DNA from: Neophaeotheca triangularis
Lineage: Eukaryota
DNA length: 64,000 nucleotides
Direction: 5' to 3'
Assembly (NCBI GenBank): GCA_054600435.1
Contig: BAAIJX010000049.1
Span: forward strand, 62,001 to 126,000
Under the pieces are notes generated by a model, which was not told where the DNA came from, made no database searches, and was given only the letters and a program-made list of their open reading frames with translations. Positions 213 to 48,989 of this stretch are shown piece by piece (position 1 is the first letter of the stretch; each line of letters starts with the position of its first letter). The translations under genes were made by a program, and so were the position numbers.

Positions 213-363
213 TATTACGGTAGGAGGGTCTACGCTAGCTTAGGTAGGCTTAGGTAGGCACTACCTCCTTAGTATTGTTTACTTATACTTTAGCCTTATA
301 GATAGTTACATAATGCTACTTTGCTTACACTATACATTAAGACCTATACCCTAGATCTTAACA
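213..363 (+). repeat. 5' LTR of element A
   Basis: T(A/G)TTA...TAACA; matches 26155-26305 with about 11 transitions and no indels; followed by candidate PBS TAGTAGCTAAGAA at 366-378. Confidence 0.95.
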
Positions 364-429: not shown

Positions 430-950
430 CTAGTCTACCCGACCGGTAATAGTTAGTATAAAGGAACCTAGTCTGCCTAATCTACTATAGTCTACTCGAC
501 CTACGACGGTCTACCTAGCCCTTCACTATCTACTTAACCCTCTAGGGTCTACTCGCCTAGTAGTAGTCTACTCGACTCGTCACGAGTCTACTTAACTAGC
601 TATAAGTCTACCTGACTAGCTATAAGTCTACTTGACTAGCTATAAGTCTACTCGACTAAGGATAGTCTGCCCTACTCATTTTAGGCCGATAGACTAATTA
701 GGCTCCGGCCTACTCTCTACGGTCTAACTACCGAAGTCTACCTAACTCGCGCTAGTCCGAATCCGAAGTCTACCTAACTTATCCTAGTCTAGTTAACTTA
801 CTAATGTCGACGTAAACCGCGCTACTCTACTCGAAGTCTATTAACTCTAGATGATTTGCCGGAAGACCTTTCCCTTATCCGCTAAATTTAATAAGAGCCG
901 GTAGAGCCTATCGTAGTCTCGTTTAATTACTATAGTCTCGCCTACCTATA
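430..950 (+). repeat. 19-20-bp-period motif array (AGTCTACTCGAC-like core, variable spacers) in the 5' UTR of A
   Basis: Cores start at about 432, 470, 489, 508, 527, 546, 565, 585, 605, 625, 645 and 665, with more degenerate copies to ~940. Confidence 0.85.
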
Positions 951-3900
951 ACTAAGAGAATAAAGGGGAATTTACTATAAGCGTCGTCACACGCGTCTAG
1001 CGAAGACTAGTACTTGTCCTATTAGCTCGCTTAAAACCGATAGCTACTTAGTAAGACCCGATTACATAGCCCTTATAATACTACCTTATAATCCGTAACC
1101 CTACCTTTTCTCTACGAGAATTAGTCTAGTCGGGAACAATTAGGCTTTAAGCGCCTACCCTAGAGCCGTTACTAGATCTTATAGAGTTCTTAATCGATAT
1201 AGCCTATTACCTTTTAAACTTCTATAGTAACGAGCGGAGATCTAAGGCTATCTATAGTAGGAACCTACGGATATAGTCTATAGCTAACAGAATTGTCGCT
1301 AGATACCCTCGCCCTAATAAAGACTATAGAGAGTTCGGTTTCCCTCCGTAGTAGTATATAGACAAGACGTTAATTAACCCTAAAGTGAAAGACCTACTTA
1401 GCGCTTATAAGGGAATTAAGTACTACCCCCTACTTAGAATCGACGAACCTAGCCCGGCGATTATAGGAGTACTAGTAGCTACCTACGCCCTACGACGCCT
1501 ACTATCTAAATCTACGGTAAGGATACCTTCTAAAAGCTAGGCAACTGTCCTAGTAACCCCTAAGCAAACCCCTCTCCTAGAAAGCGAAAGCCTACTTAGT
1601 TCTACTATTAGCGACGACATCGTCTAGAACCAAAAGCCAGTTTTCGCTAGTTTTAAGTCTATAAATCACTAGACCCCTTTACCTAAAACCGAAACCACTC
1701 CCGTAACTAAGAACTTATCGCGATCCCTATCGCCTATCTCTAGAGAGTTCTATAAGGAGCTATATACATTTATCGAACCCTCTAGGCCTACTATTACCCT
1801 CTCTAAACATAACCCTAAGCCGGGTTATATTACTACTCTCCTACGTAGCATTCTACCTCTATAAGAGCCTTTTACTATTATGGCATTAATAATAGAACCT
1901 AATAACAACTAGGAGTACGACGACTATTCCCCCGAGCCCGGGCCTAGTAATAGATAAGGGAAGTAGCCTACTAACTACGCCCCGTAAATGCTTAACCTTA
2001 CGATAGCTACTCTCGACGATATAGTTAACCGCGCTATTACGAACGTAGCGTAAGAAATCGACGCGAGGGTAGAGAGCCGATTCAAGCCCTTTAGGTAGTA
2101 ACTTAAAACTACTAGAGAGACTAATAATAGTACTCGTTAGGTAGACCGGATAGCTGCTAGAGCCCGTAGTAGAGACATAGTTAAAAGTCACTAGGACGAT
2201 TAAAGCACCTAGGAGGATAGAGACTATCGTAGGGAAAGTAGCCGACCCTATAACACTTCCTAGAACCGCCCTAGTAAGAGCGACTACGCTTAGTACTCGA
2301 ATAGGCGGCGCGACAAACCTAACTATGCCTAGTACTCGAACGGGCGGCGCGACAAATCTCGCTAGGGAAAGATATCGGAGGAGCGCCTCCGTGTAGTAGG
2401 TTTTCCTCCTAGCGATTACTAATAGGTAAGCTATCCTAGAGACCTAGACCCCTCCGATTTAGACCCCGAAGGTAGACTATATAGCTAGAGAGATAGGCGC
2501 GGCTATAATAGACTACGAGGGCAATCGAGAGGCCGCTAGGACTCCTACTACCTAAGGTCTCGTTTGCGCTCTAGATCCCACTACCTAAATTTTTTTAAGG
2601 TAGAAGAGATCGGTTTCTTCGACCCTTATCTTTCTATAACCGAGGCGCTAGCCGGCGATATAACGATGTATTAGAATAAACCCTATTTTAGATAAGTCTA
2701 CTTTTTCATCTAGGCGGCCCGTAACTATACCGTAGTTAATAGCTCCTTAGGTATACGCCTCTAGCTTAGTAAGTGTCTACACGGGGGAGCTAGTTAATAG
2801 TTTATAGTATAGCTAAGTAAAGCAGAGAGAAATTTCATACATATAGGGCCTAGCATTAAACGTTAGGAGGTAGCGCTTTATAACAAATACCGCGTCTTAG
2901 TGACCACTACTATAGTAAAGCTGTCGGCCGAGTCCTTTACCCGTAACGACATACGTGTAGAGCGGGCTCCTTCGGAGTTCGTACTTAGCTATTATCGCTA
3001 GGCTTTAGAAGCGAGAATCGATAGTTTAGAAGCCCGCCTAGCATAATGCTAGATAAGGATTAATAGGCAACTCTACTATAACATTAATAAACCTAACGAC
3101 CGAAGTACCTAGGAAGAGATAATAAGGGACATAGAGGACGCGATAGATATATAGAGGGATCTATACCCTCCTCGTACCTTTCCTACTAATAATAACTATA
3201 AGCCGAGTTTTGCCCCACGAGGGAATAAAGACAATAGTAGTAGTCGAGGTAATCGCCCTAATAGGCGGTAGGGGTCCGATAATAGCCGTGACTCTAGTAA
3301 TCGCCGTAATACTAATAGTAATTAGTAGCGATTTTTCCCTTAGCGGTACTTCGAAAACGTAAGCGAGCGGGGAGCTTAGACGTAACCCCTACCCCCCTAA
3401 AGAGAGTTAGGTTCGAGTGACTTAGCCTAGTAGGCCTAGACCCCTCGATAGGGGTAAAACCGCTAGAACCGACCTAAGCCTACTAATTACCATTTAGCTA
3501 GTGTCGAAGAAGGAGAGGAGCAATTAGACGTGGTAAAGGATAATGTTACTAGCGAGGAATCCGCGGATAAAAGCTAGCCGGACGAAGTACTAGTGAACTT
3601 TAACGATGTTATCTACTACTCTAAGGGCGATGATTACTATATAAGTAGCGACCCTATAGACTACTACGTGTCGGAGGCTTTACCCCCTAAGCTCTTAACT
3701 CTATTAGTAGATAGGGCGCTACGACCTCTAGTGTCTCTAGCGCCTATACCGAGTAGAATCTATTACGCGTATTGCCCTAAGACCTTTAGGTCAAAAAACT
3801 CTCTCTATCGTTATCTACGAGCTAAACATAGCTCCCTCTAGTCTACCGGCGTAAAGCCCGTATAACTAGCTAACTACGACACTACGATAATAGCCCTAGT

Positions 3901-6900: not shown

Positions 6901-8316
6901 CTTTCGCTTATATACTCGTATTTAGGCTAGTTTTTATATCCGAAGACTCCCCTACGAGCTCCGTCTCTACATCGCACATTACCCTGATTATAATGTCTAC
7001 TAGACGTTACGCTATCGCCTACTTAGCGAACTTTAGCCTATATAGACTAGACTAATCCCCTACTATACCTAAACTACGGATTAGGTAGTAGGGCTACTAC
7101 TAACATTAGACGGTTTTAACGTAATACTTACTATAACAGACCGTTTCTTAAAGAAGATTCTACTTGTTAAAGGCAAAAACGAGTAGTTAGCATAGTAATA
7201 GGCCTTAGCCTAGCTAGAAGCCCTCCGAGCTACTAAGTAGAATATCCTAATGATATTAATCGGCGACTAGGACAGACTCTAGTTATCTACCTTTTAGAAA
7301 GCACCTTTTAAGAAGCTTAGTACCCGTTTTCTTACGTCTACTACATACTACCTATAGACAGATAGCTAGTTAGAAAGAACGAACTAGATAGTCGAGATTG
7401 CCCTCTACTTTTTCGTTAACACTAATCCTAATTACTATTAGGATATAGCACTCCCTTATATCTAGTCTACAATGAACAATGCCCGTAACATGGTAACGAA
7501 CGAGATCCTAAACATAGTAATATAGGGTTTTAAATTAAACCTCGACGCGCTAAACCCCCTTATCGAGCTACCTACCTAAGACTACGTTATACTACGCTAG
7601 GTAGCGAGAGATTAAGCTTTAGATTCGCTTATACTAGTAGTAGCGGTTATAAAGGACTACTACGATCGTAGCCATAAGCCGGTTCGTTTCCGTCTTAGCT
7701 AAAGGGTATTACTAAAGCTTTAGAAAGGTTACTCTATCCCTAGTCTTATGTCTAGAAAACTAGCGCTATAGCGGGTAGGACCCTTTATAATCACGAGGGT
7801 AGTAGGTCGGCTTACTTACGAGCTCGACCTACTAGAGGGCTAGAAGATATACCTAGTTATCTCTATCGCCTAATTAGAACTAGCGCCTCTTACCCCCGAC
7901 CCCTATAGGAGGGAACCTACGGAATCGGGCCCGGTCTCTATAGATAATAATAGCATGTACGTCTACTAGATTAAGCGATTAATCACGAGGTATATACGAA
8001 AGTAGGTAGGCAAGGATGTTAAATAGTACCTTATTAAATAGGAAGATTAGGGACTAGCTTATAATACCTAGTATAATGTAGACGACCTAGTAGATACGAA
8101 GGAACTTATCGAAAACTATAAGCGTAACTATCCGGGTACTCTAGGGGACCTTAGTATCCGTCGCTATAGCCCCTAGCATTAACCCCTACCGCTACTACTA
8201 GCCCTTTCCCCCCCTCCTCTAATTATGACCTTAGACATAACCCGCTATCTCGTACTAGTTTTACCGTAGACTCCGATAAGTTAGTATGACCTAGCGGCGT
8301 CGACACTAAGACCTCT

Positions 8317-8474
8317 TACTACGACTAAAGGGTGTAGTACTAAGTGTAAGATGTAAACAAGATGAATAAATGAAACTATCTAGCTATAGAGGTAGAAGTA
8401 GCTAGTCTAGGGCTAGGCTACTACCTTCCCTACTAGACTAATAGGGTAAGGGCTCCCTACCTCCTACTATAATA
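8317..8474 (-). repeat. 3' LTR of element B
   Basis: Near-identical to 21247-21404; adjacent to the polypurine tract on the minus strand. Confidence 0.95.
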
Positions 8475-8514
8475 AACTCCCCCCCCTTAAGAGGCGTATA
8501 TGTCCTTATAGGCT

Positions 8515-8815
8515 AAGGTCGTCTTCCTAAAGGGAAGTCGTCTTAGCGAGGTTAAGTCGTTATAGGTAGCGCGAAGTCGTCTTAACAACTAGGAGTCGTG
8601 ACGACTAACTAGAGTCGTGTCGACCGGCTAGAGTCATGTCGACTACTACGAGTCGTCCTAACTACCTAGAGTCGTCTTAATAAACGGAAGTCGTCTCGAC
8701 TATTAGGAGTCGTCTTAACCGCTAGGGGTCGTCTAGGTAGGGAAAAGTCGTCTAGACATTATAGGGCCGTGTTAGCAGCGAATAGTTATCTCGACAGTAA
8801 GAAATCGTTTTGACA
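8515..8815 (+). repeat. 19-bp-period array (~16 units, core AGTCGTCTCGAC) in the 3' UTR of B
   Basis: Cores at about 8517, 8536, 8555, 8575, 8594, 8613, 8632, 8651, 8670, 8689, 8708, 8727, 8746, 8765, 8784 and 8803, with variable 7-nt spacers. Confidence 0.9.
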
Positions 8816-9007
8816 ATATAGGGTTACATTAGCCTTATAGTGTTCGAGGAGCCATTAGCGCTACGAGAGGTAGTAGTATAATAGCTAGCTATAGTAGGAG
8901 GTTAGGGTACGGTTAAAATAAGGCTTAAGGGTTTTAGCGGCGTAGGTAAGTTCCTTTATGCTTTAGATAAATATACTATGTACTGTACTAGTCGTATGTC
9001 GCTCGCG

Positions 9008-9290
9008 CAAAAGCTCGTAGAGGGCGATAGCTATACTAGTATAAGCTATTAAAGTACTAGTCTATAGAAAAGCTCGTAGAGGGCTAAAGCTATACTAGGT
9101 AGAGCTGTCAAATCGCTAGTCTATAGAAAAAGCTCGTAGAGGGGCAAAGCCGTACTAGGTAGAGCTGTTAAAGTGCTAGTCTATAAAAAAGCTCGTAGAG
9201 GGATAAAGCTATACTAGGAAGAGCTGTCAAAACGCTAGTCTATATAGAGCTCGTAGAGGGTTTAAAGCCGTACTAGGATAAGCTTAGAGG
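9008..9290. repeat. ~60-bp tandem repeat (~5 copies) in the 3' UTR of B
   Basis: Unit AAAAGCTCGTAGAGGG...AGC(T/C)(A/G)TACTAG...AGCT...CTAGTCTATA recurs at ~60-bp spacing. Confidence 0.9.
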
Positions 9291-9325
9291 GATAAGCCTT
9301 GTTTTAGTAGAGTAGAGGTGCCGTG

Positions 9326-9440
9326 TAGTTAAAGGGATTTCGCCTTAAGTTAGTAGAGCGAAGGTACCTAGTAGTTAAAAGGGATTATGCCCTAAGTTAG
9401 TAGAGCGAAGGTACCTAGTAGTTATATAGGATTTTACCTA
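9326..9440. repeat. ~47-bp tandem repeat (~2.5 copies)
   Basis: TAGTTAAAGGGATT...TAAGTTAGTAGAGCGAAGGTACCTAG is repeated. Confidence 0.8.
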
Positions 9441-9462
9441 GAGCACTACTTATAACCTAGGG

Positions 9463-12400
9463 TTACGGAACGGTACGGGTACGTTTGCTTACTAACTAGG
9501 GAGCATTTATAGGTAGTAGACGCTTATTAGGGCGGGGCGTCTTGTTTAAGCTACGGGGAGGGACGGTCGCCGGCTTAGCGCTACTAGTAGTTACTCTAGA
9601 TCGAGTGTTATAAGCTAGGCCCGCTAGGGTTAGTTCGATAGTAGCTCGTGGCCTAACGGTAGCTCGTAGCGCTATCCTATCCGCCGTTAGTAAGGACTAG
9701 AAGTCTAGCTTAGGAATGTCGTTAGGAGGAACCGGTACCTAGAATAGTTAAGTGACATCTATACTAGAGGCGTTTCCTATAGAGGGAGGGGGAGCGTCTA
9801 GTTGTTTAAAAGCCTAATTGTTCTACGCTATAGTAACCTAAGGGGGTAGGTCGATAACGTTAAGCTCGCCGTAGCGTATAGCGCCGTCCTTTACTAGCTT
9901 AATGTTAGCGGCTATAGCGGCGAGGGTATCGCGCTTAATATTAGTTATTACCTTTAGCTACTCCCTAGCTTCTTCCTAGAGGCGCTCCGATTTAATGTAA
10001 GCGCGCTCGGATGCCTTTAGGGCGGTATAGTATCTCTACGCCGCCTCGTTATAGCCGTGCTAAGAATCGGCTGTTATCTCGTCGTCGATCGGTAGTAGAG
10101 AGTCCTATTAGGCTCTAGACATCATTAGGGCGTTAGAGCTATTAGCGCTTTACGCGAAAGCGCCCTTACGGGGAGCTTTTATAGCTATTAGGGCCTAGTG
10201 TTTATCTTTAACGAATAGGTCGGCGAGTACTACTAGGCTATAGCGCTTCGTAGCTACTATACTAGGGGGTAGGGGCGGTCCGGCGAGTAAGCGATACAAA
10301 GTCGTAGTTATTAGGACGGGGGCGGTACTAATTAAGGGTACTATAGGAGTTAAGTAGGGTAGGGGGAGGCGGAAAGCGTTACTAGTTCTACCTATAGATA
10401 CCGCTAGAGGGAGGGCGGCGCTTACTAGTAGTACATCGTCCTAGTCTTAGGGGGGAGGTAGGTTTACGGTATAGCGCTAAATCGGAAATGGGTCGGTATC
10501 GTAGAACTCCGCGACGTTAGTAAGCTCCCTAATTACCTCTTAGCTAGGGATGCTAGGGATAGGTCTAGCTAGGGCATTACGGCCTTAGAGCTAAACATCC
10601 ACGACCTATTAGGGCACTACTCGGTATACCGGGTTAAAGCTAGCTTACATGTCGAGGTACGTACGTAGATCGTCCTATACGCGGTCTACGTCTACGTACT
10701 CTAGCTAGTCGATTTTAGTCTAATTAACCTCTATATTAGGGTCGTATCTAAAGATAGGTTTCCCTTTCTAGGAGTGATAAGACTTAGATACGCCCGCTGT
10801 ATTAGGGCGTATCTAAGGGTAAAAAACGAGGTCATTAGTGTCGTAATTAATGCGACGGTCGTCATCGTGTACCGCCTCTAAGGTATCGTAATAGTGTTTC
10901 CTACTACTAAGGGTATATACGCCCTAGACGTAAACGTATCGGTAGCGGTTATCGCTCTTAACGTAGATAACCGCTAGTAGGCCGCGGGGACGGCGAATAG
11001 GTAGGGGCAATACATCCTAGTTAAAATTCGCTAGCTAGTTATCGTGTAGGAATCTTTTCGATAGCACTTTGTCTACATGATAGAGTAGTATAAGCTTGTA
11101 CACGTCATAGTCGCTTAGGATCGCGTTCCTAGGCAGGAGGTTCTCGCGAGAGAAATAGGAGTATATCGTATAGTACTAGTAGTAGCCCTATACCTTAGCT
11201 AGGTTAAGCTCGGAGCTAGGCTCCTAGGAGATTTTAGCGCTTTCGGGGCGGGTCTCGTCGTACATAAGAAACTAGTCCTCTACTTTGTCGACTCCGTTAT
11301 AGCGGCGTATAGTAGTAAAGGGGTTTAGGATTCCGCTACCTATAGTAGAGTTAACGAAAGGGGATAGCGACTACGCGTCATGAACTATAAGGCTAATAGA
11401 GCGTAGGACGAGTTCGGTATAACTATAGGGGTCGCTCTCGGTTTTCTAGCGGGCTTCTTAGAGTGTAGAGTACTAACCTTCGGAGAGGACCTTAATAAAG
11501 TAAGAGAGTACTATAGCGAATCTGTCGCCCGTTACTAAAGTCTTTAGGACTTCGAAGGAGTAGAGCTGTCCTAAACGATTAGTTGCCTAGCGCTTATAGT
11601 CTATTATCTTAGCGAGCTCTTCTATAGGGGTAGCTATTTCGGTACCGAAACCACAGAAAATTAAAGAGTAGAGTAGATTAGTAGGCGCGGCGACGACTTA
11701 GTTATCGTCTTCGTGTACAAAGTAGGCGATTACCCCGGGCTAGGCGTTTAAGATATAGTCTACTAGTCGTATATATAGCTTAGCTTGCTTAAGGGCGAGC
11801 TTAGCGATAGCCTACTTATTATAGTACTTAGGGGACTCCTTAGGGTTTTCGCGTTATACGCCTTTACGGATAGCGCTCTAGCGCTTAGTGTCCTGAAAAG
11901 CGTTGTCAATAGTTAATTAAGCTTTAAGAGTAGCGAGGAGTCGGTCGCCTCTCCTATAGCGGGCTACTACCTAGATCGCTAATTCCTATAGGAGGAGGGC
12001 GCTATCGAGGAGGAGCTAGTTAGGTGTTATAAAGCCGATAAGGTAGGCGAAACTAGGCGTAATGGCGACCTTAGCGCGCTTTACATACTTAATCTAGGTA
12101 AGGGTACGCTCCGAAGGGTCCTTTAGGGCTATAGGAAAAGAAGCGCGAAGTAATAGCTAGTACTCTTCGTTTAACTAAGTAAGGCTAGCGAAAAGTGATA
12201 GGCCTATGTAAGCCGCTATAAGCGCTATAGCTTCCGTACCCTAGGGGCTATAGGTAGCTTTAAGCTAGGGTAGTAACGCGGAGTCGTCGTCGAGCTCTAA
12301 TAGGCGTAGGAAGAGTGTACCGCTAAAGAGTAAATCAATTAGCATAAAGCGGAAGTAAGTAAACAAAAGCTTAGCTAAAGTCTATAGGCGAAGGTCTTTA

Positions 12401-12939
12401 TACTTTAGGTTAAGAAGATTAGTAGTAGCCGAGAGGCCGAGAGTGAAAGTGTTTTAGGTAAAAGAGACGCCGAGGTTAGCGTGAAGGAGGACTACTACCG
12501 CGTTTTCAATTAACTAGGCCTCGTAGGGCTAGAATAGTAGCGATAGAGTAGGAAGGGAGTAGGTATCTAGAATCTATAGTCCGTTACACGCGAAGGTGTT
12601 ACGCTAGTAGGGAGACCACTAGGCTAGCGGTAGGTCTAGCTTTTCAATAGACTAGTAGACTACTAAAGGAGCGGCAGGTTAAGAAGTGTCGGCCGTTATG
12701 CCGTTCTCTCCCTATAGGAGGTAAGGGCGTATAGTTTAGGTTAAGTTAGTCTTTTATATATAAAGGAAGCGTCTTAGTGTAAAGTATAGTAAGAGTATAA
12801 GCTCGTTTAGCGTAAGAGCCGCTAGTAGTAGGTAGGCGGAGGTATACTCGGTTTTAGAGATGTTATCGCTAGGTAGTAATAAGTTAAAGTTGTCTAATAT
12901 ATAAGAGTATAAAGTAGGTAGCTAACCGAGTGTTATCAT
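9463..12939 (-). pseudogene. RIP-degenerate extra ORF (ORF3, ~1158 codons) of element B, unknown function
   Basis: One frame from ATG 12939; its translation aligns block by block with 21762-25373 (e.g. LYSFEVLKTL, YFIKVLSEG, IGSGILNPFT, RYVYV*GVYTL, *LEYVDVDRV, PI*RYTVNLP). The end position is approximate. Confidence 0.85.
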
Positions 12940-13160
12940 AGAGAGAAAGTGTTATATAAAAAGGGTGTTATAGTAAGGTATAGTCGTAAGGTAAAGGAGA
13001 GCTTTTTAGAAAGGTATAGAGTTACGTTGTTATTATTATTACTAAAAGCGGAAAGCAAGAAGTTATGCTAAGAAGTGAAAGGTACTACGTTATATGTCGC
13101 CGTAGTAACGGCAGGCATTATCGATAGCGCTAATAAGAATAGTAACGCCGCCGAGATGCC

Positions 13161-16100
13161 TTAGGTACCCCTAAAGGCATAGGTAGCTACCCTCCTAACT
13201 TGCTAGTAGACTTTCGCTCTAGAGCGTTAAAAGGTAGGACGTAGGTAGTAGGTATTAGTTTTAAGGTAGAGCCTCTCCGGGTCTCCTTTAGAAGTAGAGG
13301 GCGAGGGGTAGCGAGTCGGGGTCGGGATAACTACGGTTAGGTATCGCGGCGCTAGCTAGGGTAAGTAAGGGGGATCGAGTCGTAGTTAAGGTAGTTAGCG
13401 GCATCTACCCCTTAGCTTAAGGTCTCCGTCTATACTAGGATGGGTATAGTCGTATTCTACTATTAACTCCCTAGTATCGGCTAAGTCGTCGGCGTTATAC
13501 TATAGATTGTATACTAGGCCCTAATCTTTCTACTTTACTAGATATTGTTTGACTAGCTTACCCTACTAGGAGCGGACTCTTCTTACTAGTAAGCGCTCGA
13601 TTTCATACACTAAAATCCCGTTATCGTCTATAGAGACGGGGCCTAACTCGGCGGGCCTATAGCTATAAGGGTTAGGGGCCTAGGGAGCTAGTTCTAACTA
13701 AGTAATAGAGACTACTAGGTAGATCTTCTAGTGCGGCGGGAGATCGAGCTTATAGGCTAGTCGGCCTACTATTTAGAGTATCTTGAAAGGGCCCGTCCTC
13801 TACGCTACTAACTTTTTCGGAATGAAACTAGGGATAGTATAACCGCGCTAGAGCTTAAGCAAAACTTTTTGGCCGGGTTTGAAGTAGATAGGTTTATGAG
13901 CGCGGTTATACCTATCCTTTATTACGGTAGCTACTATAGCTAGGGCATCTAAGGCTTAGTCCCTTACTACCTGTCTAAGTGTAACGTAATCCGTAGGTAG
14001 GAGCTTAATAAGGGTGTCTAGCGCGTCTAGATTCGTTCTAAAGCCTTAGATAACCACATTTAGAATCTCGTTAGTAGAGGCATTCCTAGCGTTATTAAGC
14101 GTTAACTAGATATAGGGCAGCGCTACGTCCTAAGGCATGTCCGGGTTTAAATTAATAAAGAAACGTATAGCGATCTCTACAGTTTAGTTAGTTCGCTTAG
14201 ACTAACCGTTAGTTTAGGGGTAGTAGGTAGTAGAAGCGAGGAACCTTATATAAAGCCGCCTAAAAACTTCCTTCTAGAAGGCGGAGAGCTATAGAGGATC
14301 TCTATCACTAATAAGAATCATGGGAATATTCTAATCGGCCGTTCGGAGTACTTCTAACTAGGCTACTACCTACTCTAGGGTAGACTAATCTACGCGCCCC
14401 TTAATTAGTAGGATCTTCTTAGAGAAGCGGTTAGTAACTATAAGTAAGGAGTCGTAGCCCGATAGGGTAGGGGGTAGGGCATAAACCTAGTTAGCGGTTT
14501 AAGTATAATATAGAATTAGGCGAACCTCCGTAGGTTAGAGCTCGCCTAGGGGCCTATGTCGGCGTGTCTAGTATAGCGCGTAGTCTAGGCAATAGGCGAT
14601 ATAGCGCTATAGCTCTTAGGATAAGCGGTAGATGTAAAAACTAGCTTGGACGCAGGTATATACCCTAAAGAAACTAGTATAGTAGTGATTATCGTGTGCT
14701 ATCGCGAAGATCTCCTTGAAAATTAAGTAGGGAATGTATAGGCGTTCTCGGCCGTCGGCATTATCTCTATAGTAGATAAGGTCGTCGCGTAAAAAGAATC
14801 GGAGGCCTAACGGCGATAACTCCGGCTCGCCCTCTAAAGCATCCTTAGTCTCGCTAACGACTTCTATAGGCTAAGTAGGGACAGCCTATAGGGTAGTTAC
14901 GGCCTCTTAGGAGGGCGTCGAGTACTCGGTAGCCTTATAGTAGCGGCGCTCCTCCTATGCCTAGAGTTAGCGGAGGCGGGGAGCCTAGTATAGGTCTAAA
15001 CGATAGCTAGCACGAATTTCCTACTTAAGGTCGTTAGCTATTTCTACTAAAGCTACGTAGAAGGCTAAGGGCTCCTACGACTCGGCGAAATCTAGTAAGT
15101 ATTAAGTATCTAAGCTATCGTAATCTGTAGCGCCGATAGAGACGTAGTAGGCTTCCTCGTAGGCTATAGGGTCGAGCATATTAGTAAGAGCTTCCGCTAG
15201 GGTAGCGAGTTTACCGAGTAGGCGGCTTAAAGCATTAGGGACTAAGTAGATACGGCTAGGTCTATAGTAGACGTCTAGGTTGAATTAGGAGACGTATTAG
15301 CTAGCTCTAACTAGCCGGAGGTTAAGCTTATCGGTATAAGTAGTAGTAGTAAGGCTATGTTAGGTAGCGATGCCCGTCACTACTATATGATTAGTGAAGA
15401 TAAGGGTAGGTAGTAGTAATGACTATATGATATAGCGTGCCTTTTATAGAAGCTAAACTAAACTAGCTATTTCTAACTCTATAGGCTAATAGTGACTCTC
15501 TACTAGGGTAAGTCCTTTACTTAAAAAGGCGATAGGCTAGATGTCTTTCCTAGGAAAGTGTAGAGCTTTCGTTCTAGACATGACCGGGTTAGGGTCTCTA
15601 GCTACTATATAGATAACTGCTCTAAACCTAAATTCTTTAGAGGTATCGACGTTAGCATAAAGCCGTCTTTTTAGATTAAGGTAGTAAAGGAAAGGAGAGT
15701 CCTTGAAAATGGCCTATAAAGCCTCGAAAGCAGTATATACCTAGGCACGGAGCTCGTCTATATTAAGAGTAACCTTCGTAGTAGCTAAGTAACGCTTCCT
15801 AGCGTTACCCTTTATAGGGCTACCCTTAAGTAGCTATGTCTTTAAGGCTTAAAGCGGCTAGGTAATCTAGGCGTAATAAGGGACGGCTTGTCGTAACTAA
15901 CTAGTAAGGCTAAGATATTTCTCTAAGTCCTTTAAGGAACGAGGGAACTAGAGGTTAAGTATAGCCTTAATTTTGTCCTTATAGGTAGTAAGGCCTAGTC
16001 TACTAACCTACTAGCTAAGTAAGGTAGTAGAGGGAAATCCTAGGAAGGTCTTAGCTAGGCTAATACTAACGCGGTATCCTTATAGGACGGTGAAGACTTG

Positions 16101-19100
16101 TCGTAGGTAGTCGAGGTACTCGTCGAGGTTAGCGGAAAAGATAATAATGTCGTCTATATAGGCGCGGTAAAATGGACGGAGGTAGTATAGGATATTGTTA
16201 AGCTCCCTCTAGACGTAGGCCACTAAGTTTTTAAAACCTATAATAGCGACTTTAAAAACTTCCTATCTGTAATAGGAGTTAATAGCGAGCTTATAGTAGT
16301 CTTTTACGGTAGTGAGCTACTAGAAGAAAAAGGCAACTACATCTATAACTAAGATAAGTTTAGTACCTTATATTGCCTAAAGGAGGTCTTCTTAGAGGGG
16401 GAGTAGCTAGCTGTCTTTAACTATAACGAGATTAAGGTTACGGATGTCGACGACTACATAACCCTTTCTTACTAGGGCTCTATCTTTATAGACCGTTTTC
16501 TACATAACGAAGACTAGGGAGCCGAAAGCTATATACTCGTAGGACTACTCCATTTTGCCTTACTAGTGTAGTCTATCGTAGGCCTCGTTAAGTATAAGGC
16601 GGTCTAAGGCGTAGAGCGGATACCCCTTCGTAGACAGCTTCTCCTTTTCCTAGCCGTCTTTAAGATAGATAGGTATATAGTAATGTTTAGGGATGTCTAC
16701 GGTTTAGCCTTTATCGACAAATAGGTCGGGGAAGTCGCCTAACAACATGTTAAAAGCTACTACCTATATATCATCGCCGAACACCGTAATTCTATTAGGT
16801 AGGACGAGTTAGTTAGCTATTAGTAGGCCGTTAAAAACGGTTTTAGGTAGGAGCCCTACTAAACAATAGTTATTAGGGCTAATATAATAGCCCTCCTCGT
16901 CGGTCCACTCTATTAAACGGCCGAGGGGCTTCCTAGCTAGTAGCGTCACTAGTTAGAGAGAGTCGTTCCTAATTATCACGAAGGCTAAATTGGCGTCTAT
17001 AGCGTAGTTATATCCCTTTAACCTAGGGGGAAGGCTCGGGCTAGGTATGAAGTCGAAATCTCTATCCGTAGGGAGGTCTATCTAAGCTAAGGGAACTTTC
17101 GCTAATAAGCGCGGCGGAATAGTGACGGGGTGTATAGCTTTTAGTAATAAACCGAGCTTTAAGTAGTCTCTAGACTTAATGAGTAGGGGTACTCTAATGT
17201 TTCCGTAGGCTCTAATAGTCACGAGCTTATAGGGGATATTAATCTTCATTACCTAGGGGGTAATAATGTCTATAGAAATGAGCATTAATAGCTTTAAGTC
17301 GCTAACAATGTATACCTTATAGGTCATTTCGTAGAGGCCCCTTCTAGTAGGGGTATTAGCGAGCGTCTAAAAGATAAGGTTAGCGTACTCGGAGTATATA
17401 TATAGTCGGGAACTAACTCCATGTACCTAGAAAGGCACTTTTAGCTTATAGAGCTAAATGTTAGGTAAATGAGTAGCTAAAAATCGTTTGTCGATCATAG
17501 ATATAATAGCTCCTATATCGAGGTAGATAGAGTAATCGACGCCTAGCTTAGCTAGCTATATAGCGAGGCGAAGATAGTAAAAATTGTAGAAAGCATATCC
17601 TTAATAGTTAGTCCTAAGAGCTAATAATTTAACGACTAGGAGTTCCTCTTCGTACTTAGGTAAGGAAGTCGTTTTAGGAACTTCGGCTAGTTAGGCGGAC
17701 TTAGAGTCCTCTACCGTACTATGTATAAGCTATAAATGCCTATAGAGGGAGTTTCGTGAGCTAAAAGAATCATTGCATTCTAAGCACCTAAGCTTAGCTA
17801 GGTAGGGCTATATAGCTAATGCTAGTCGTAGTGCCGCTAGTGTAGGAGTTATAATAAGGCTAGGGACTAAAGCCTCGTTCAGATAGGCTTAGACTAGGTT
17901 AGCCGAAGTGAGAAATTAGTCGTCGTCGTCGTCGTAGGCGACAATGTTAGCGAAGTTAACCTCTAGGGCGTCCTCCTTATAGTACTCGTAGTCCTCGTAG
18001 TTCTCTAACTCGTCTAGCTCTACTACATGATTATAGTTATCGACCTCGTCATCCTTATCGATATCGGCTAAGTAATTGTTAGCTAGTCTTAGCTAAGTAC
18101 GTAGGGGCGCTAACTAGGGGGGTTGTTTATCCTAGTAAGATTAGCGTTAGCGACCTTAATTCTATAGACGGTTTATGTTATCTTGCGAACCGAACTCTCT
18201 TTAGGTAGGGGGGGCAGTCTAGGGTTGTTATCTCGGTAAGTAATAGTCTACTATGTTTCCTAGAGGTCGAGCCTAGGGGTTAGGGTTAGGGGTATGGCGA
18301 TTATCGCTTCTAAAGTAGTAGTTGCCTATACTATTAGTGTCGATTAGGGGGTTAGGATAATAATGCTTACTTAGTAGGTTAGTAGGGTAGAGGGGGTATA
18401 ACTTAGCCCAAGTATCTATATAATCCTCTATCTTATGTATTAACTCCTCCTATATAGTAGCGTGGTCTAGTTTGTCGATATCTCATCGTAGCTAGGGCTT
18501 AATGCGAAGCTAACACTAAGCTATCCTAGTAGTTAGGCTGTCGATTTGTGCCTCTAAAGCCTATTAGTAGTAGCTTAAAACGAACTTAGAGGGGGCTCTC
18601 CCCTAGCGTATATCTTTATAGGAAAAGAGTTCCTTATTAAGATTAGTAAGTGTAGTCGTGACTAAGACACGGAATTTGTCGCGTAGTGCTATCTCCTAAC
18701 GTTTAATACCGCGGCTACTACGAAGGTAGGCCCTATTAGCGTTAGTAAGTTAGCTGATAAACTACTAGCTCGCGCCTCTATATAGGCATTTCGGTAACTA
18801 CTACCTCGTAGTAGTAGTAGAGTTAACGGTAGAGTAATCCTAGGTAGATTAGAGGAAGTAGTACATAGAATGGAAGAATTATTTGTTCTAACACATAACG
18901 GAATTACCTACTAGTACGTCGGTTGTGACCGGAAGGTATAGATCGAAATAGCCTACATTATTAGCTCTAAAGTTGCCCTAGTAAGAGCGCGAGCATAACG
19001 GGTTTTAGTTACGGTCGTAGTAGGAGTCGCGTCTACTACGGGAGGTCTTACGAGAGCGATAATCTCTATAACGCTCCCTTCGAGAGTATAGATAGTAGTC

Positions 19101-20750
19101 GGAGTCTAAGCTAGAAGAGCTAGGGTCGTTAGGCTCGTCCCTTGCCTAGTACCTAGGTAGGGAGTTATAGGGAATTTGTCGATAGGGGGATAGAGGCCGT
19201 ATATGTCGCTAGGGGGATAGAGGCCGTACATTTACTTGTTCTTCGCTAGCCTAGGTAGAGAGGCCGGCTCTCCTAAGGCGCTCGTCCTAAGGAGGGGCGT
19301 AATGACGAATCTCTCGCTAGAATTTAATAGAGGGTAACGGCTAGTACGAGGCTGCGTTTAGGAGTAGTCTAGGTTGTCCGAGCTTATAGCGGAATGCTTA
19401 AAAGCGCTCGTTAAGATTAGTACTAGCTTTAGAGCGAACTTATATAGTAGTATGTTAGAACTCGGCGATAGAGGTACTTCTTGTCTCTTCTACCGCCTTA
19501 TAGAGTATCTCCTAAATGCTATCTCGTATAATGTAATCTAGCTCTAGATCCCGTTAGGGTTGTTTCCCCTAGGTCCTAGTACTAGGGCTAGCTAGGGCCG
19601 ACTAACGGTCGTCGTCGTTATAGTCGATAGGGCTATTATAGAGGGTGCCTTCCTATCTAGACGTTATTACGACTGTCGATGCGGGTTAGCCTTAGGGAAA
19701 AGTCTAATCGGCTACGAGAAAGGGGAAAGGGGCGTTTCTAAATTCGCTATAAGTGCGCGGAGGTGACTCTAAGGAGGCCTTTATAGTTAGTAAGGCCTAG
19801 GAAGGCTTAGAGGGCGTCGACTACTTAGTCTTTAGTAGGTCTTCGAAACCGGGGTGTTATAGCAGTTCCGGGGGGCTGTCGTCGCTAATCGTAGAGCTAA
19901 CGTCGTCACTTAGTAGTACCTAGATCTCCGAAGGTAGCGTAAGTAGTAGGGGGTACTAGATAGGATTAATAGCTAGGGAAGGGCGAGAATCCTATGTAAC
20001 GGGGGTTTATTAGGGAGCGGTCGCTAACAGGGAATTCTAGGTAGGATTAACGGCTACGGGAAGACGGGGTTCTTCTATAGTAGGGGGTTTTTAGGGAGCT
20101 ATTACAACCTATCTCTTAGGGGCGACTACAACTTTCCTTAGGGTATGTATAGGGCGGCTTTTAGTAGTAACGATAGTAGCTAGTAACCCTATAAGCGTTA
20201 GCTCGGGCGGGTCTAGATAGAGGGCCGGGTAGTAGCGTATCCTCTCGAAAGCTATAAGCAAATCGCGTACTACTAGTATAATAAGTGATTTCTTAATAGA
20301 CTAATTAGTAGGGAAGCCGAACTCTCCTAGGTCTAGGTAATAGGGTAGCTTTAAGTTATTAGGAGGAGGATATCTTAGAGTTAAGGATTCCTACTACAGA
20401 TAGCTTTAGAGCGACCGAGGTAGGAGTAGAAGGCATATAGCTAGTAAGCCGTAAGCACGATTTGTATAGGTAGCTTAGGTAAGGGGTCTAGTATAATAAA
20501 CACGGTTTAATTAGTAAGCGCTCGACTAAACTTATAGGTAGAAAGCGGAGTTAGAAGGCCTTATAGCTTCCGTAATTAGCCGGTTTAGTATAGCGGAAAA
20601 GGGAGGGTAATGTCCTAATGCTAAGTAGCTTAGGTAGAGGGGCGAAAGGGAGTAGTAGTATAGGTACTAAGTATTATAGTGGCTCGGGCATATATAGAGA
20701 TGCTTGCGATCGATACTAGGTCTAGGATTAGTCTCGTATTCTTATAAGGT
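13161..20750 (-). pseudogene. RIP-degenerate gag-pol of B; start approximate
   Basis: GEFGFP (~20320), VGYFD gag (~18950), C2H2 finger CLECNDSFSSRNSLYRHL (~17730-17790), protease (~17520), RT YIDD (~16155), RNase H, integrase, chromodomain (~13450-13615). Its C-terminal peptide resembles that of A; stop at 13161. Confidence 0.9.
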
Positions 20751-20844
20751 AGTGTACCTTCGAACCTAATGTGTATTACTAATCGACTTAGAGTAGTAGA
20801 ATGTCGTTAAGCGGCATAAGGTTAGCTCGAAGCGGCTAATAAGC

Positions 20845-21200
20845 GTTATAGCGCTTAGAGTAGTTCGAGACGAACTAGGGGCTTGCTAACGACTAAGGGG
20901 TTATAGTGACGCCTATAGCGGGCCGAGACGGGTAGGTAGTGTTAGGACGGTAGTGTGGTGCCGAGATACCTAGCGAGGCTCGAGACGACTCCGGCGTGTC
21001 GAGACGACATCACGGTGTCGAGATGACTTTAGGGTGTCGAGATGACTTTAGGGTGTCGAGACGACTATGAAGTGTCGAGACGACCTTAAGGTGCCGAGAC
21101 GACTCTAGAGTGTCGAGACGACTTTAGCTAGTTAAGACGACTTTATCTAGTTAAGATGACTTCGGCGGGTAGAGACGACTTATAGGTTTAGAGCTAGCTA
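20845..21200 (-). repeat. 19-bp-period array (core GTCGAGACGACT on +, i.e. AGTCGTCTCGAC in element sense) in the 5' UTR of B
   Basis: Units such as GTGTCGAGATGACTTTAGG repeat at 19-bp spacing; the core is the reverse complement of that in the 8515-8815 array. Confidence 0.9.
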
Positions 21201-21246
21201 TCTAGTATTAGTGATCAAGGGATCCTTACTATTCTTAGCTACTAAT

Positions 21247-21404
21247 TGCTACGACTAAAGGGTGTAGCACTAAGTGTGAGATGTAAACAAGATGAATAAA
21301 TGAAACTATCTAGCTATAGAGGTAGAAGTAGCTAGCCTAGGGCTAGACTACTACCTTCCCTACTAGACTAATAGGGTAAGGGCTCCCTACCTCCTACTAT
21401 AACA
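21247..21404 (-). repeat. 5' LTR of element B
   Basis: TG...CA termini; candidate PBS (minus-strand TAGTAGCTAAGAA) at 21232-21244. Confidence 0.95.
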
Positions 21405-21761
21405 CCTCCGGTCGACTAGACACTAGCGAGTTATTTAGACTTAGACAAACCCCTATACTAAGAAAGTCTCCCCCTAAGGAGACCTAGGCCGCTAATTTAG
21501 CGTATAGGAGAGGAGGTTAGGAGGCAGACTTGTAGAGCTACTACTAGAGCCTTCTAGAACTCCTAAGACACTTCACTATATCGTCTATTCTTATCGCCTA
21601 TTAGTAGCCGCGTCGTCGCTATAACGACGAGTATGTAGCGCCTAACGCGAGTCTTAGCACTATGTTCTAAAAACACCTCTTCACTTCTACTTTCGGTAAT
21701 AATAACAATACTACAAATTTTTTACATCTCTACTATTATCACTAATAACCTCCTACACCTT

Positions 21762-24700
21762 ATACAATAAGTAACCGTTAAGAGTAAACTAGTCCTTAAC
21801 TATACCCCTACCTCTTTTCTATTAGACCCTATTGTCCTATATAGCGATTTAGAGGGTAGCGAAGACACTCCCTTCATTAACTTTAAGGCGTAATAGCGAG
21901 AGCGTACCTTTTAGTCCTACTTTTAACTTAACGAGTTCGCCGCCCTCTACCTTAACTACCCTAGAAGGTATAAACTCGAGCTCGTACCGGGAGACTCTTT
22001 TACTAAGGAGATAGCGTAGTTAAAGAAGAACGTAGCGGCAGTCCTATTCGTAGGTAACCTCTTCTATAGTTTCACTTTGAAATCCTACGAGCGCGCGCTC
22101 TACGCGACCGCTAACGCGCTTACTACTAACGGCAAACCGGATAATGACTATCGTTTCCGAACCCTTACCTATTCACTTTTTCTGTCCGACTGTTTCCGAG
22201 TTCGCCGAAACAACTAACTTCATAACCTGACTAGGCTTACTAGCGGCGACCTTTTCTATTATCTCTTAGACCTCTATAAGGCGGCGCTAACCTCCGCCTA
22301 CCTATATATCTAGGCCCTCTACTCCGCGATACTAGTAGAGCCTGTCGACGGTTACTCTCTAGGCCCTTAGACCTTTATAGGTGTCCCTAACATATACGCG
22401 ATTTTTTAACGACCTTCCCCTATAGAGTCCGCCGCCCTAGACATCTAGGCTTTAATCACGAAAGAGTTAGATATAAAAGTAGAGTCTACGCGTCCTCTAG
22501 TAGCCTTTTATAGTACTAAGGGTTACACTATAAGAGAGGGACTTGTTAAGATAGGAGTTATTTTAGCTAACGAGATAATCGAAGCTATAGTATGGCGTTA
22601 CGCTAAAGGAGACTTCTATCTATTCGACCGCGAGAACGAAATCTATGACACTAACTATTAGAAAACCTACCTAAGTTTCGAATCCGCCTATAAGTAGGTC
22701 TATAAGAGAAACCCGACATTTGGCGAGGTCGAACTTATCGATAACACTATCTCGCTCCTTACCCTAATCGACTTAGAACTCCTCTACTGCCTAGCCCCCT
22801 ATACCCTCTAGAACTAGCCCGGAGCACTCTACTACCTCGGTTAACTCGGTATAGGTTAGATCATTTTAGAGCTACTCGAGCTAGAGTAGGCCTCGATATT
22901 CTATGCCTTTCCTAGCGATAGCCTCTTACCTAACGCTAAGCGCACTACTATTTATAACTACGAGGATTTGGTAACGGATACCGCTAGAAAGTTATACACG
23001 TTTAAGTACTTAAAGAACCTATATAACCCCGAACGTTTCTAGTTTACAGCTAACTACTTTATAGCCCTTTTATTAGAAGGCTAGCTTAAGTCCTACTAAG
23101 ACGCTATCTTAGTCGACGAACATAACGGATACCCGTACTTTACGTATAGGGCACTAGGACTAGCGGTAAGAGACCTTTACTAAGAAATAGTACATGTTAC
23201 CGTAGCTATAGGAGGCGGATACCCTAACCCTTTTACTATAACGCGCGAAGATACTAATAGAAACGAATATGAGGGCAAATTCTACATACTCTACGAACCT
23301 TTTGCCTATACTATTAGCTAAGCGCCCGAACGTCACTATAAGACAGTCTTAAACCTATCGTAGACCTATCGGTCTAAGTTCTATTTCTATATCTATAGTC
23401 CCTAGGATAAGAATAACCTACCCCCGGCCTATACCGCTTTAGAAGATACGGACGTTCTCGAGTTACTTATCCTATACTACTATGTAGGTACCCTCTCTAT
23501 CGAGTTCCTCTAGAACTACTACCTAGAGTCCTTTTCCTATAAGGGCTAGCTGCTACTAATACGCTAGTAGCGAGGTAGACCCGGTATCTTCTAGATAGTA
23601 GGTAAGGGCTAGAGATACGCTTATATCTAGGGTATTTATACCCTCTATAGTAGCGGCTACCTCTACTACTACCTCGAGTAGCTAAATAACGACAAAAAAC
23701 GCCTTACCTTAATGTACCCGGTAAATAATACCTATATATAGTAGCGCCCTATAGACCCCGCGGGACTAGCCCGCCCCTCTTATAAGGCCTAGGAAAACTT
23801 AAAGGATAATAGAGTTAAGCTCTAGGACTACGACGATAATCTTTAGGTTAGATAGGACCTTATTCGTTAGCTAGAATACGTCGACGTCGACCGCGTTAAC
23901 ACTAGATACTACGCCTACCTAGACTTATAGGAAGCGCTCCTATTAGGATACCTAGAACGAGTTATCCTAGAGAGCGTTACTCTTACCTAGAGCGAGTAGA
24001 AGAACACTACCTCGTAACCTTAGCCCTTAATAGAAGGCCGCGATGTAATCTTAGACTTAGATAGACCGCTAGATTTCTCCTATAGTAACTATTACCCTAT
24101 ATAGCGCTATGCCTTTAACCTACCGCTACCCCTAGGATTAGAAATTATAGTGATAATATAGTATGGTTAGTAGACTCTACGACGTGTCTTAGGGTTAGAA
24201 GCAGGTTTCCGCCTCCTATAGCCTAACTCTAGGACGAGTATCTAGGCGTAAAGGCATACTACCTCGGCTAACCGAGCTTACTAGGCGGCAGAATAGGCCC
24301 GTACCCCGTCTTACGAGATAGGAGCCCTTTAAATTAGTAACCCTATTCCCTTTAGCCTAGCGCCGTAAGTACTCTAGCCCTACTCTACTTAGAACTAGAG
24401 CTCCGATCCGTTCGTGCGATAAGCGCTATAATAGTCCTAGTAGCCTCCTTTCGTTTCCTCCTAATAGGCGTAGCCCGGTGTCGCTTTCGGGTTTAGAATT
24501 AGCTAGGTAGACTACTAGCCCGCGAACTCCTAGTAACTACGTTAATAGACTACTTACTAGTAGAGTGGCCTACCCTAGCCGACGTTTATATTCGGAGCTT
24601 AATAAACGTAGTCATACTAACTAGGTTTCGAGCTATAGTAGAACCTCGCTCCGTAACCGAGTACCTAGGCCGTATAGTCGTAGCTATACTAACCTCTACC

Positions 24701-25789: not shown

Positions 25790-26110
25790 TATCTACTATA
25801 GATTATTTCGAGACTAACTACACTACTACTACCCTCTATAATACGCTAAAGCTAACTAGACTTTTCCTAGTCTATATAACTCGCTAAAGTCGACTAGACT
25901 TCCGCTAGTCTATATAACTCGCTATAGTCGACTAGACTTCTACTAGTCTACATAACTCGTATAGGTCGACTAGACTCCTACTAGTCTATATGACTCGCTA
26001 TAGTCGACTAGACTCCCTACTAGTCTACATGACTCGTACGGGCTAGCTAGACTCGCTAACGTCGACTAGACTCCTCGCTAGCTATATAACCTACGTTAGA
26101 TAGCTAGACT
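25790..26110. repeat. ~38-bp dyad repeat array in the 3' UTR of A
   Basis: Units GTCGACTAGACT-N6/7-AGTCTA(C/T)AT(G/A)AC-N8, i.e. the 5'-array motif in alternating orientation. Confidence 0.88.
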
Positions 26111-26154
26111 CGGGAGGATAGTAAGGACACTACCTAATATAGTAGGGGGGGACT

Positions 26155-26305
26155 TGTTATAGTAGGAGGGCCTACGCTAGCTTAGGTAGGCTTAGGTAGG
26201 TACTACCTCCTTAGTATTGTTTACTTATACTTTAGCCTCGTAGATAGTTACATAATGCCACTTTACTTACACTATATATTAAGACCTATACCCTAGATCT
26301 TAATA
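26155..26305 (+). repeat. 3' LTR of element A
   Basis: TGTTA...TAA(T)A, preceded by the PPT and followed by TSD GCGCC. Confidence 0.95.
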
Positions 26306-26310
26306 GCGCC

Positions 26311-30085: not shown

Positions 30086-30313
30086 GTAGGAAAGGTTAGA
30101 GAACTATAGTAGGAGGAGTAGGCCTTTTTATAGTGCTACTATGTTCTTTTAGGAGCTTTCTAAAAGTGATAGCAAAACACCTTCTACCTATTACTAGTAG
30201 CTTCTACGTAACAACGTATAGTAGCGCGTAGTAGTAGTAACTGCCGTAAAACGTAGCATTTATATATTCACTACTAAAAAGGGCATTCACGTGTTGCTTA
30301 ACAGTAGGGAGAG

Positions 30314-30463
30314 TGTTATAATAAGCCGTACTGCGCAGCACGTGACAGATGCCTAAGGCATTAGCCGGAAGCCGTAATCTGTCTTTGTAGGCTTTGCTGT
30401 AAAGCACCTAGTTTAGTCCTTAGTAATTAATCAATCGAGTTCGTGCCGCTGCATATTACAACA
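30314..30463 (+). repeat. 3' LTR of the Copia element (150 bp)
   Basis: TGTTATAATA...TATTACAACA, a 10-bp terminal inverted repeat with one RIP-type mismatch, immediately after the PPT. Confidence 0.8.

Positions 30464-48958: not shown

Positions 48959-48989
<31 letters not shown>

Follow-up and report, generated by a model that had tools for sequence, protein, structure and literature searches.

The joining of the two ends of a retroelement or viral RNA has been described for several systems. In Ty1, the CYC5 sequence just downstream of the primer-binding site (PBS) pairs with CYC3 at the 3′ end of the RNA. In Ty3 of Saccharomyces, the primer tRNA bridges the RNA ends through a bipartite 5′–3′ PBS. 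Long-range pairing of the 5′ and 3′ RNA termini is reported for HIV-1 (PMC1976439) and for orthoflaviviruses (PMC12168079). Arrays of short sites near one end are described for the insulator of Drosophila gypsy, which has 12 sites with a 12-bp consensus and short variable spacers in 340 bp of the 5′ untranslated region (UTR) (PMC2374998). We have analysed 64,000 nucleotides of Neophaeotheca triangularis (contig BAAIJX010000049.1, positions 62,001 to 126,000; this whole stretch is called the window), which contain a long terminal repeat (LTR) retrotransposon, element B, and a related element, A. Just inside both LTRs of B lie two mutually inverted arrays. We propose, with a probability of roughly 0.42, that these arrays would join the ends of the genomic RNA, zipper-like, in a segmented panhandle, comparable to the CYC5/CYC3 pairing of Ty1.

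The arrays resemble CYC5 and CYC3 in being complementary cis elements of a single RNA, one located past the PBS and the other within the 3′ UTR. Unlike the single short pair of Ty1 and the tRNA bridge of Ty3, they consist of about 16 repeats of a 12-nt core with 19-nt phasing, they have non-complementary spacers, many registers and a partly palindromic core, and no sequence similarity is claimed. The arrays of B and A are not a CYC pair, though they may work like one. As in retroviral and flaviviral circularisation, terminal regions of an RNA of ~9–13 kb would pair, but phased repeat arrays take the place of the unique complementary sequences used there. The gypsy insulator is likewise part of a Ty3/gypsy element, and the 5′ arrays here extend over ~320–370 bp with 16–17 units. 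The insulator is one array, whereas here a second, inverted array stands ahead of the polypurine tract (PPT). The Su(Hw) consensus YRYTGCATAYYY has a TGCATA core, which by inspection is lacking in the cores AGTCGTCTCGAC of B and AGTCTACTCGAC of A. We know of no fungal counterpart of Su(Hw). The DNA transposon En/Spm has subterminal arrays of 12-bp TnpA-binding motifs, and the arrays of B share with such DNA-transposon repeats the many short motifs, the opposite orientation and the location a few hundred bp inside both ends. CACTA-type elements are bounded by terminal inverted repeats and encode a transposase; here, in contrast, we find direct LTRs, a PBS-like site, a PPT, reverse transcriptase (RT), RNase H and integrase, and replication through RNA. 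In plant Tat/Ogre/Retand elements, the stretch from pol to the 3′ LTR contains hypervariable tandem repeats (PMC11963269), comparable to the 59-bp and 47-bp repeats of B described below. Unlike those, the 19-nt arrays keep their core across two diverged families and form a matched pair at both ends. In the open-access library searched, no description of paired inverted UTR arrays in LTR retrotransposons was found, and the matches listed for the core strings were unrelated by title. What we describe is thus either a cyclisation signal in multiple copies or an array of UTR binding sites that is present at two ends instead of one.

Two LTRs, a flanking target-site duplication (TSD), a PBS-like site, a PPT and pol domains on the minus strand identify element B (8317–21404, minus strand) as a 13.1-kb Ty3/gypsy LTR retrotransposon, degraded by repeat-induced point mutation (RIP). 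Its ends and arrays are:

8317..8474, minus strand: 3′ LTR, 158-bp direct repeat, with CCTCT at 8312-8316 as TSD
8477..8488, minus strand: PPT AAGGGGGGGGAG, G-rich, 2 nt ahead of the 3′ LTR
8517..8821, minus strand: 3′ UTR array, 16 units, period 19, element sense GTCGAGACGACT, the reverse complement of the 5′ core
20864..21180, minus strand: 5′ UTR array, 17 units, period 19, sense AGTCGTCTCGAC followed by ACCCTAA
21232..21244, minus strand: PBS-like site TAGTAGCTAAGAA, 2 nt past the 5′ LTR, with the same 13 nt in A
21247..21404, minus strand: 5′ LTR, 158 bp, TG..CA ends, with CCTCC at 21405-21409 as TSD

The two LTRs agree at 152/158 positions, and each of the 6 differences is a transition. 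The TSD is 5 bp long and reads CCTCT and CCTCC at the two flanks. The PBS-like site can be read as a RIP-changed TGGTAGC... site. A tRNA scan found no tRNA gene within the window, so there is no partner in it for the 13-nt site of A and B.

A first-pass annotation of this DNA had described the period-19 arrays as mutually inverted and lying just inside both LTRs of B, which was confirmed by Tandem Repeats Finder, a repeat search and the LTR limits. It had counted about 16 units in the lower array; in register there are 16 in that array and 17 in the upper one. The orientation of the arrays had to be corrected, because B lies on the minus strand and the array at 20864–21180 is therefore the 5′ UTR array. 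Each unit is a 12-nt core with a 7-nt spacer (8 nt in one case), and the cores are on opposite strands in the two arrays. The 5′ array begins 66 nt past the 5′ LTR and the 3′ array stops 42 nt short of the 3′ LTR; the PBS segment and the PPT segment alone part them from the LTRs. The 11 LTR-proximal units of the 5′ array are clean (20979–21180) and the inner ones degenerate, with 17–18 units in total from 20845/20864 onwards. Tandem Repeats Finder gives period-19 arrays at 8575–8734 (8.4 copies, score 69) and 20980–21127 (7.8 copies, score 135), and the repeat search gives 12 in-register copies spaced exactly 19 nt at 20905–21212. With at most 2 mismatches, AGTCGTCTCGAC occurs 33 times in the window against an expectation of 5.55 ± 2.34, and none of 100 shuffles reaches this number. 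The matches are split into 19 in the B arrays, 6 in the A arrays and 8 elsewhere.

The cores are conserved and the spacers variable, as had been noted from the first. The information content of the core is 1.21 bits per position in the 5′ array of B and 1.23 in the 3′ array, against 0.53 and 0.40 for the spacer. In a purine/pyrimidine alphabet, which is blind to RIP transitions, the corresponding values are 0.69 and 0.76 for the core and 0.21 and 0.24 for the spacer. Core and spacer clearly differ in their rates of divergence. The interrupted palindrome GTC-N5-GAC, also proposed in the annotation, is present in the B core (GTCG-TCT-CGAC). A hexamer is best conserved, AGTCGT in B and AGTCTA in A, and position 6 is invariant in both B arrays. 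Over all unit pairs between the 5′ and 3′ arrays of B, identity is 0.66 for the core and 0.26, the random level, for the spacer. Spacer identity within an array is higher (0.39 and 0.33). Since only the cores are alike between the two ends of B, a recent inverted duplication is no explanation for their likeness. Since the spacers are closer within than between arrays, each array turns over locally and the core alone is common to both ends.

Element A (213–26305, plus strand, ~13 kb), in which B is nested, is the one other family member available, and it has such arrays too. Its ends and arrays, with the half-site counts of both elements, are:

213..363, plus strand: 5′ LTR, 151 bp, starting T(A/G)TTA..GTAGGAGG like the B LTR, with TSD GCGCC at 208-212
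432..805, plus strand: 5′ UTR array, about 16 sense units AGTCTACYYRAC, period 19-20, from 68 nt past the LTR
25857..26110, plus strand: 3′ UTR array of 38-bp units, antisense GTCGACTAGACT alternating with sense AGTCTAYATRAC, stopping 44 nt before the 3′ LTR
26144..26152, plus strand: PPT AGGGGGGGA, G-rich, ahead of the 3′ LTR
26155..26305, plus strand: 3′ LTR, 151 bp, with TSD GCGCC at 26306-26310
Half-sites of A, sense / antisense: 11 / 1 at the 5′ end, 6 / 8 at the 3′ end
Half-sites of B, sense / antisense: 8 / 0 at the 5′ end, 2 / 11 at the 3′ end

The LTRs of A are identical at 140/151 positions, all 11 differences are transitions and the target duplication GCGCC is perfect. The first 15 nt (TGTTATAGTAGGAGG) are common to the LTRs of A and B. 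B is inserted near the end of the A pol, directly past the chromodomain-like stretch. The two elements are colinear and their gag-pol frames are 49% identical over 2099 aa. A blastn alignment of A with B exists only between positions ~2660 and ~7900, and no similarity of the UTRs outside the coding region was detected by blastn. The core of A is AGTCTACTCGAC, and 10/12 core positions are common to A and B. Core positions 5–6 are GT in B and TA in A, each element having its own version at both ends. The complementarity of the two ends is thus kept through this change; in terms of natural covariation between A and B, positions 5–6 change at either end, and A has no compensation at position 7. 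Both families have the palindromic frame (A)GTC-N5-GAC(T), and the 3′ array of A shows divergent half-sites TAGACT-N6-AGTCTA. The offsets between array and LTR agree between B and A, with 66 vs 68 nt at the 5′ end and 42 vs 44 nt at the 3′ end. Both elements are long for Ty3/gypsy (13.0–13.1 kb) yet their LTRs are very short (151–158 bp).

Because both arrays are internal to the LTRs, the sense array and its reverse complement would be present together on a full-length transcript. Core complementarity between the 5′ and 3′ arrays is 12/12 in B and 11/12 in A. The predicted cofold of the B 5′ array with the B 3′ array gains −70.8 kcal/mol with 168 intermolecular pairs, compared with −22.9 kcal/mol for the same-sense orientation control, in which the 3′ array is replaced by its reverse complement, and −11.0 ± 2.9 kcal/mol for 20 shuffles of the 3′ array. 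Nine consecutive helices are formed in one constant register, the longest of 11 bp. The core duplex of B has −20.6 kcal/mol vs −3.1 kcal/mol for the hairpin of a single unit. For A, the cofold of the two arrays gains −26.5 kcal/mol with 102 intermolecular pairs, and shuffles of the 3′ array give −9.5 ± 3.1 kcal/mol. Non-cognate cofolds reach −13.6 kcal/mol (B 5′ with A 3′) and −19.4 kcal/mol (A 5′ with B 3′), the cognate pairs being stronger in both elements. Folded alone, the four arrays show no unusual structure relative to shuffles (z −0.89, −1.52, +0.50 and, for A 3′, −2.31).

We therefore rank RNA end-pairing first, because strong pairing of the ends follows from the B sequence and the offsets, kept within 2 nt, also suggest a cis role linked to replication. 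The arrays would act as cis-acting parts of the retrotransposon genomic RNA, with the sense array ~66 nt after the PBS side and the reverse complement ~42 nt before the PPT side of the transcript. The 12-nt cores would pair and the 7-nt spacers stay unpaired. The ends of the 13-kb RNA would then form 12-bp helices parted by 7×7 internal loops, with many registers possible. Such a panhandle would place the PBS/R-U5 end beside the PPT/U3-R end. It would promote both initiation by the reverse transcriptase and the first strand transfer, the role played by CYC5:CYC3 in Ty1 and by the tRNA bridge in Ty3. Joining of the ends may weigh more where, as here, the genome is unusually long and the LTRs are very short. 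From the observed arrays, their positions and complementarity and the predicted energetics, we infer that intact copies would be transcribed, that their ends would pair in vivo and that replication would benefit.

Several observations weigh against end-pairing. The annotation had suggested such pairing and had named complementarity of the spacers as a check on it. The pairing itself found support in the energy of the B cofold and its nine helices in one register, but the spacers are not complementary: their best register scores 0.349 vs 0.357 ± 0.029 for permuted unit order, and 1169/2000 permutations are equal or better. Pairing is thus confined to the 12-nt cores. The 3′ array of A alternates in orientation, unlike a simple inverse, and its sense and antisense half-sites are mixed, as counted above. 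The cofold of A 5′ with the reverse complement of A 3′ gives −33.6 kcal/mol, no worse than the real pair; because the A 3′ array holds both orientations, this control is uninformative. The core duplex of A has only −13.0 kcal/mol and a central C.C mismatch. In three neighbouring units of the B 3′ array, core position 7 is G while the 5′ array is unchanged. The palindromic frame is superfluous for 5′–3′ pairing. A and B share ancestry, which makes the inverted arrangement close to a single observation, and both copies are RIP-dead. To our knowledge, known cyclisation signals are single short pairs, and arrays with conserved core and variable spacer are otherwise protein-binding sites.

The proteins encoded by A and B bear on the alternatives. 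Their frames, together with the other repeats of B, are:

9009..9424, minus strand: 3′ UTR tandem repeats of 59 bp and 47 bp, in B only, 4.5 and 2.6 copies (Tandem Repeats Finder)
10357..12831, minus strand: open reading frame 3 (ORF3) of B, ~850 aa, downstream of pol
13011..20417, minus strand: gag-pol frame of B, with 159 stops from RIP and Pfam matches
21654..24224, plus strand: ORF3 of A, homologue of B ORF3

The translation of B was read over the minus strand of 8473–21245 with X at stop codons. Its gag-pol frame contains a C2H2-like finger, RT, RNase H, an integrase SH3 domain and a chromodomain-like tail, with Pfam matches to RVT_1, RT_RNaseH, RT_RNaseH_2, SH3_Tf2-1 and zf-C2H2_11. The order RVT_1, RT_RNaseH/RT_RNaseH_2, SH3_Tf2-1 in a single frame is found by Pfam in both A and B. 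Several Pfam scores in pol fall under the cut-offs because of RIP; RVT_1 of A has 45.3 bits vs a cut-off of 29.6. After SH3, a chromodomain-like stretch (..YLVKxKDxG..YNxxYN..) was spotted by eye in A and B, with tryptophan codons read as stops, at the integrase C-terminus where chromoviruses have their chromodomain; the translations of A and B have no match to Pfam Chromo. The C2H2-like zinc finger at the C-terminus of Gag lies at ~17720–17790 (minus strand) in B, CLECNDSFSSRNSLYRHLxLIH, and at ~3760–3830 (plus strand) in A, where it is RIP-altered. No CCHC knuckle was found in either polyprotein. The C2H2-like finger in Gag and the conserved third ORF make the A/B lineage unusual, besides its length and short LTRs. 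The 59-bp and 47-bp repeats of B, which have no counterpart in A, may well be neutral. The 59-bp unit includes the A half-site AGTCTA on the plus strand.

The ORF3 products of A and B are 28.6% identical over 870 aa (E 7e-55). Searched against 1.84 billion representatives, a profile of ORF3 recovers 10 proteins at E ≤ 0.001. Three of these come from the Dothideomycetes Polychaeton citri, Elasticomyces elasticus and Rachicladosporium sp. and are annotated as hypothetical. Intact homologues occur in Dothideomycetes and in metagenomes. The conserved core contains the motifs LPPxxxxLEDADV and GxPxPxRRQxGRPA, and neither ORF3 nor its homologues match a Pfam family. The predicted model of one homologue, P0001, has a mean pLDDT of 48, a confident domain at about residues 35–205 and a long helix at residues 346–403 of low confidence (block-mean pLDDT 37–44). 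Foldseek gave no PDB match to this fold at E ≤ 0.001, and in a wide structure search with VIA-align the long helix alone was matched (Z ≤ 4.7). From the predicted structure searches a DNA-binding fold for ORF3 can be neither claimed nor excluded. DUF6590 appeared as a weak lead in the ESM Atlas (score 0.90, 17% of members), received no confirmation from Pfam and was dropped. Word-indexed protein searches for more relatives recovered the queries alone. A metagenome scan with the ORF3 alignment gave 293 pattern matches, and confirmation was obtained for 2, L001 of 3.4 kb and L002 of 4.5 kb. L001 is without pol upstream and L002 has a different gypsy integrase on the opposite strand; the 19-bp array is absent from both, which is uninformative on arrays in relatives. 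Among viral contigs, 0/75 candidates were confirmed with the ORF3 alignment and 0/92 with the pol alignment, and the exact two-unit array pattern had no match.

Instead of RNA elements, the arrays could be phased double-stranded DNA sites, on the integrated copy or on the complementary DNA (cDNA), for a sequence-specific and probably dimeric protein. We regard this as possible, if tentative, and as compatible with RNA pairing. A host factor bound there could act as an enhancer, an insulator or an anti-silencing boundary that flanks the transcription unit on both sides, or a binder encoded by the element itself, such as ORF3, the C2H2 finger of Gag or the tail of the integrase, could mark both ends of the cDNA in the manner of subterminal repeats in DNA transposons. 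Sites for a dimeric element-encoded protein had been suggested in the first-pass annotation. The palindrome, the phasing and the two-way arrangement in A fit that suggestion, but no binding protein was found, and ORF3 and its homologues are without Pfam family or fold match. A conserved 12-nt core, variable spacers and a constant 19-bp phasing are the anatomy of the Drosophila gypsy insulator, although the core does not fit the Su(Hw) consensus. The frame AGTC-N5-GAC(T) is palindromic in both families, with the hexamer as its most conserved part, and the divergent half-sites of the A 3′ array would suit orientation-tolerant recognition. RNA pairing in A is broken at the central base of the frame, a position that a symmetric dimer would leave unread. 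The palindromic frame, the hexamer, the divergent half-sites and this central position suit recognition of double-stranded DNA by a dimer better than they suit RNA pairing. Both elements have a conserved extra protein, with the long helix of P0001 predicted at low confidence, and LTRs of 151–158 bp leave U3 little space for regulatory sites. A host-enhancer role, however, explains neither the second, 3′ array nor the offsets kept within 2 nt, and we know of no LTR retroelement that uses subterminal arrays for an accessory protein. The palindromic frame and the mixed orientation in A, together with the fact that known core-plus-spacer arrays are all protein sites, make DNA binding a close second.

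It is decidedly unlikely that the arrays are functionless UTR minisatellites that go back to a single ancestral inverted duplication and owe their continued likeness to tandem turnover. Tandem repeats are indeed frequent in these UTRs, as the 59-bp and 47-bp arrays lacking in A illustrate, and plant Retand elements have long post-pol regions with tandem repeats (PMC11963269). The higher spacer identity within than between arrays also means that units multiply locally. Neutral decay, however, should hit core and spacer alike, and between the ends their identities are 0.66 vs 0.26. The core is held at both ends and across A and B, which argues against neutral minisatellites: A and B agree in 10/12 core positions, in the period and in the offsets despite 49% pol identity and otherwise unalignable UTRs. 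A family-specific change at both ends would moreover require coupling of inverted arrays 12 kb apart. Stand-alone RNA hairpins (GUCG-UCU-CGAC), serving as a multi-copy signal for Gag binding, packaging or dimerisation, are a very improbable explanation. The 5′ array is located where retroviral packaging signals lie, Gag has a C2H2-like finger instead of a CCHC knuckle, and the units can form stems of 4–5 bp (−3.1 to −3.2 kcal/mol) or, in the A 3′ array, a 6-bp hairpin (−5.1 kcal/mol). Yet three of the four arrays, all but A 3′, fold no better than dinucleotide shuffles, and the duplex between the arrays is far more stable than the unit hairpins. The loops of the 3′ array are complementary (AGA, not UCU), so a single RNA-binding protein would not read both. 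As a leading explanation the hairpin array was rejected on its folding energies.

Returning to end-pairing, it can be given a stronger form, which we hold to be rather unlikely. The arrays would then be a new cyclisation signal, a segmented multi-register RNA zipper of ~16 12-bp helices that would fasten the ends of a 13-kb, possibly chromoviral, genome with high avidity and whose core would co-evolve at both ends in each family. As part of the same proposal, deliberately non-complementary 7-nt spacers would leave no helix long enough for host silencing triggered by double-stranded RNA. The palindromic sites of such a zipper may, once copied into cDNA, also serve to bind a protein.

The left 30 kb of the window are AT-enriched and full of stops, and a single frame of at least 90 aa overlaps 1–27000. 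The TpA/ApT index is 2.46 and the (CpA+TpG)/(ApC+GpT) index 0.22 in this region, compared with 0.85 and 1.06 in the genic right half, which we take to be the signature of fungal RIP. No Rfam family was found in 1–30000. No further copies of A or B were found in the rest of the window. In contigs of run X1 at 80% likeness, the summed depth is 243–562 over B vs 133–139 over the parts of A only; the differences are mostly transitions, and more than one contig covers both array bins. Further B-like sequence covering both array bins therefore exists in the source organism. A 168-nt contig of run X2, labelled as a different organism, is identical to the B LTR and PPT segment (window 8334–8501). The region 26306–30500 is AT-rich (GC 0.33), has indices like those of RIP and contains small tandem repeats; it shows no detectable similarity to A or B and is probably another degraded repeat. 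At 36398–42760 (plus strand) lies an open frame of 2120 aa with internal tandem repeats of 105/108 aa; its DNA has periods 105, 108, 216 and 324 at 40205–41422 and 177–180-bp duplications at 37364 and 38633, and its single Pfam match, DPC2, is weak and under the cut-off. Ordinary fungal genes occupy 45520–63239, among them a MOSC-domain protein, an MBOAT acyltransferase, an MFS transporter and adjacent AMP-binding and PP-binding/Condensation frames (a gene resembling a nonribosomal peptide synthetase, NRPS).

The pair of arrays provides a searchable signature for Dothideomycete genomes, namely the same core in inverted orientation ~65 nt past the PBS side and ~43 nt before the PPT side. It is also a clean experimental handle, since one array can be inverted, scrambled or compensated. 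If the protein-binding alternative is true, this would be the first LTR element with both ends marked by matched protein-binding arrays. Ty1 and Ty3, the best-studied LTR retrotransposons of yeast, require an interaction between the 5′ and 3′ parts of their genomic RNA, and the only forms of it known from them are single short sequences and a tRNA bridge. If RNA end-pairing is true, a repeated, phased and family-specific pair of arrays would be a different solution to this end-joining problem.

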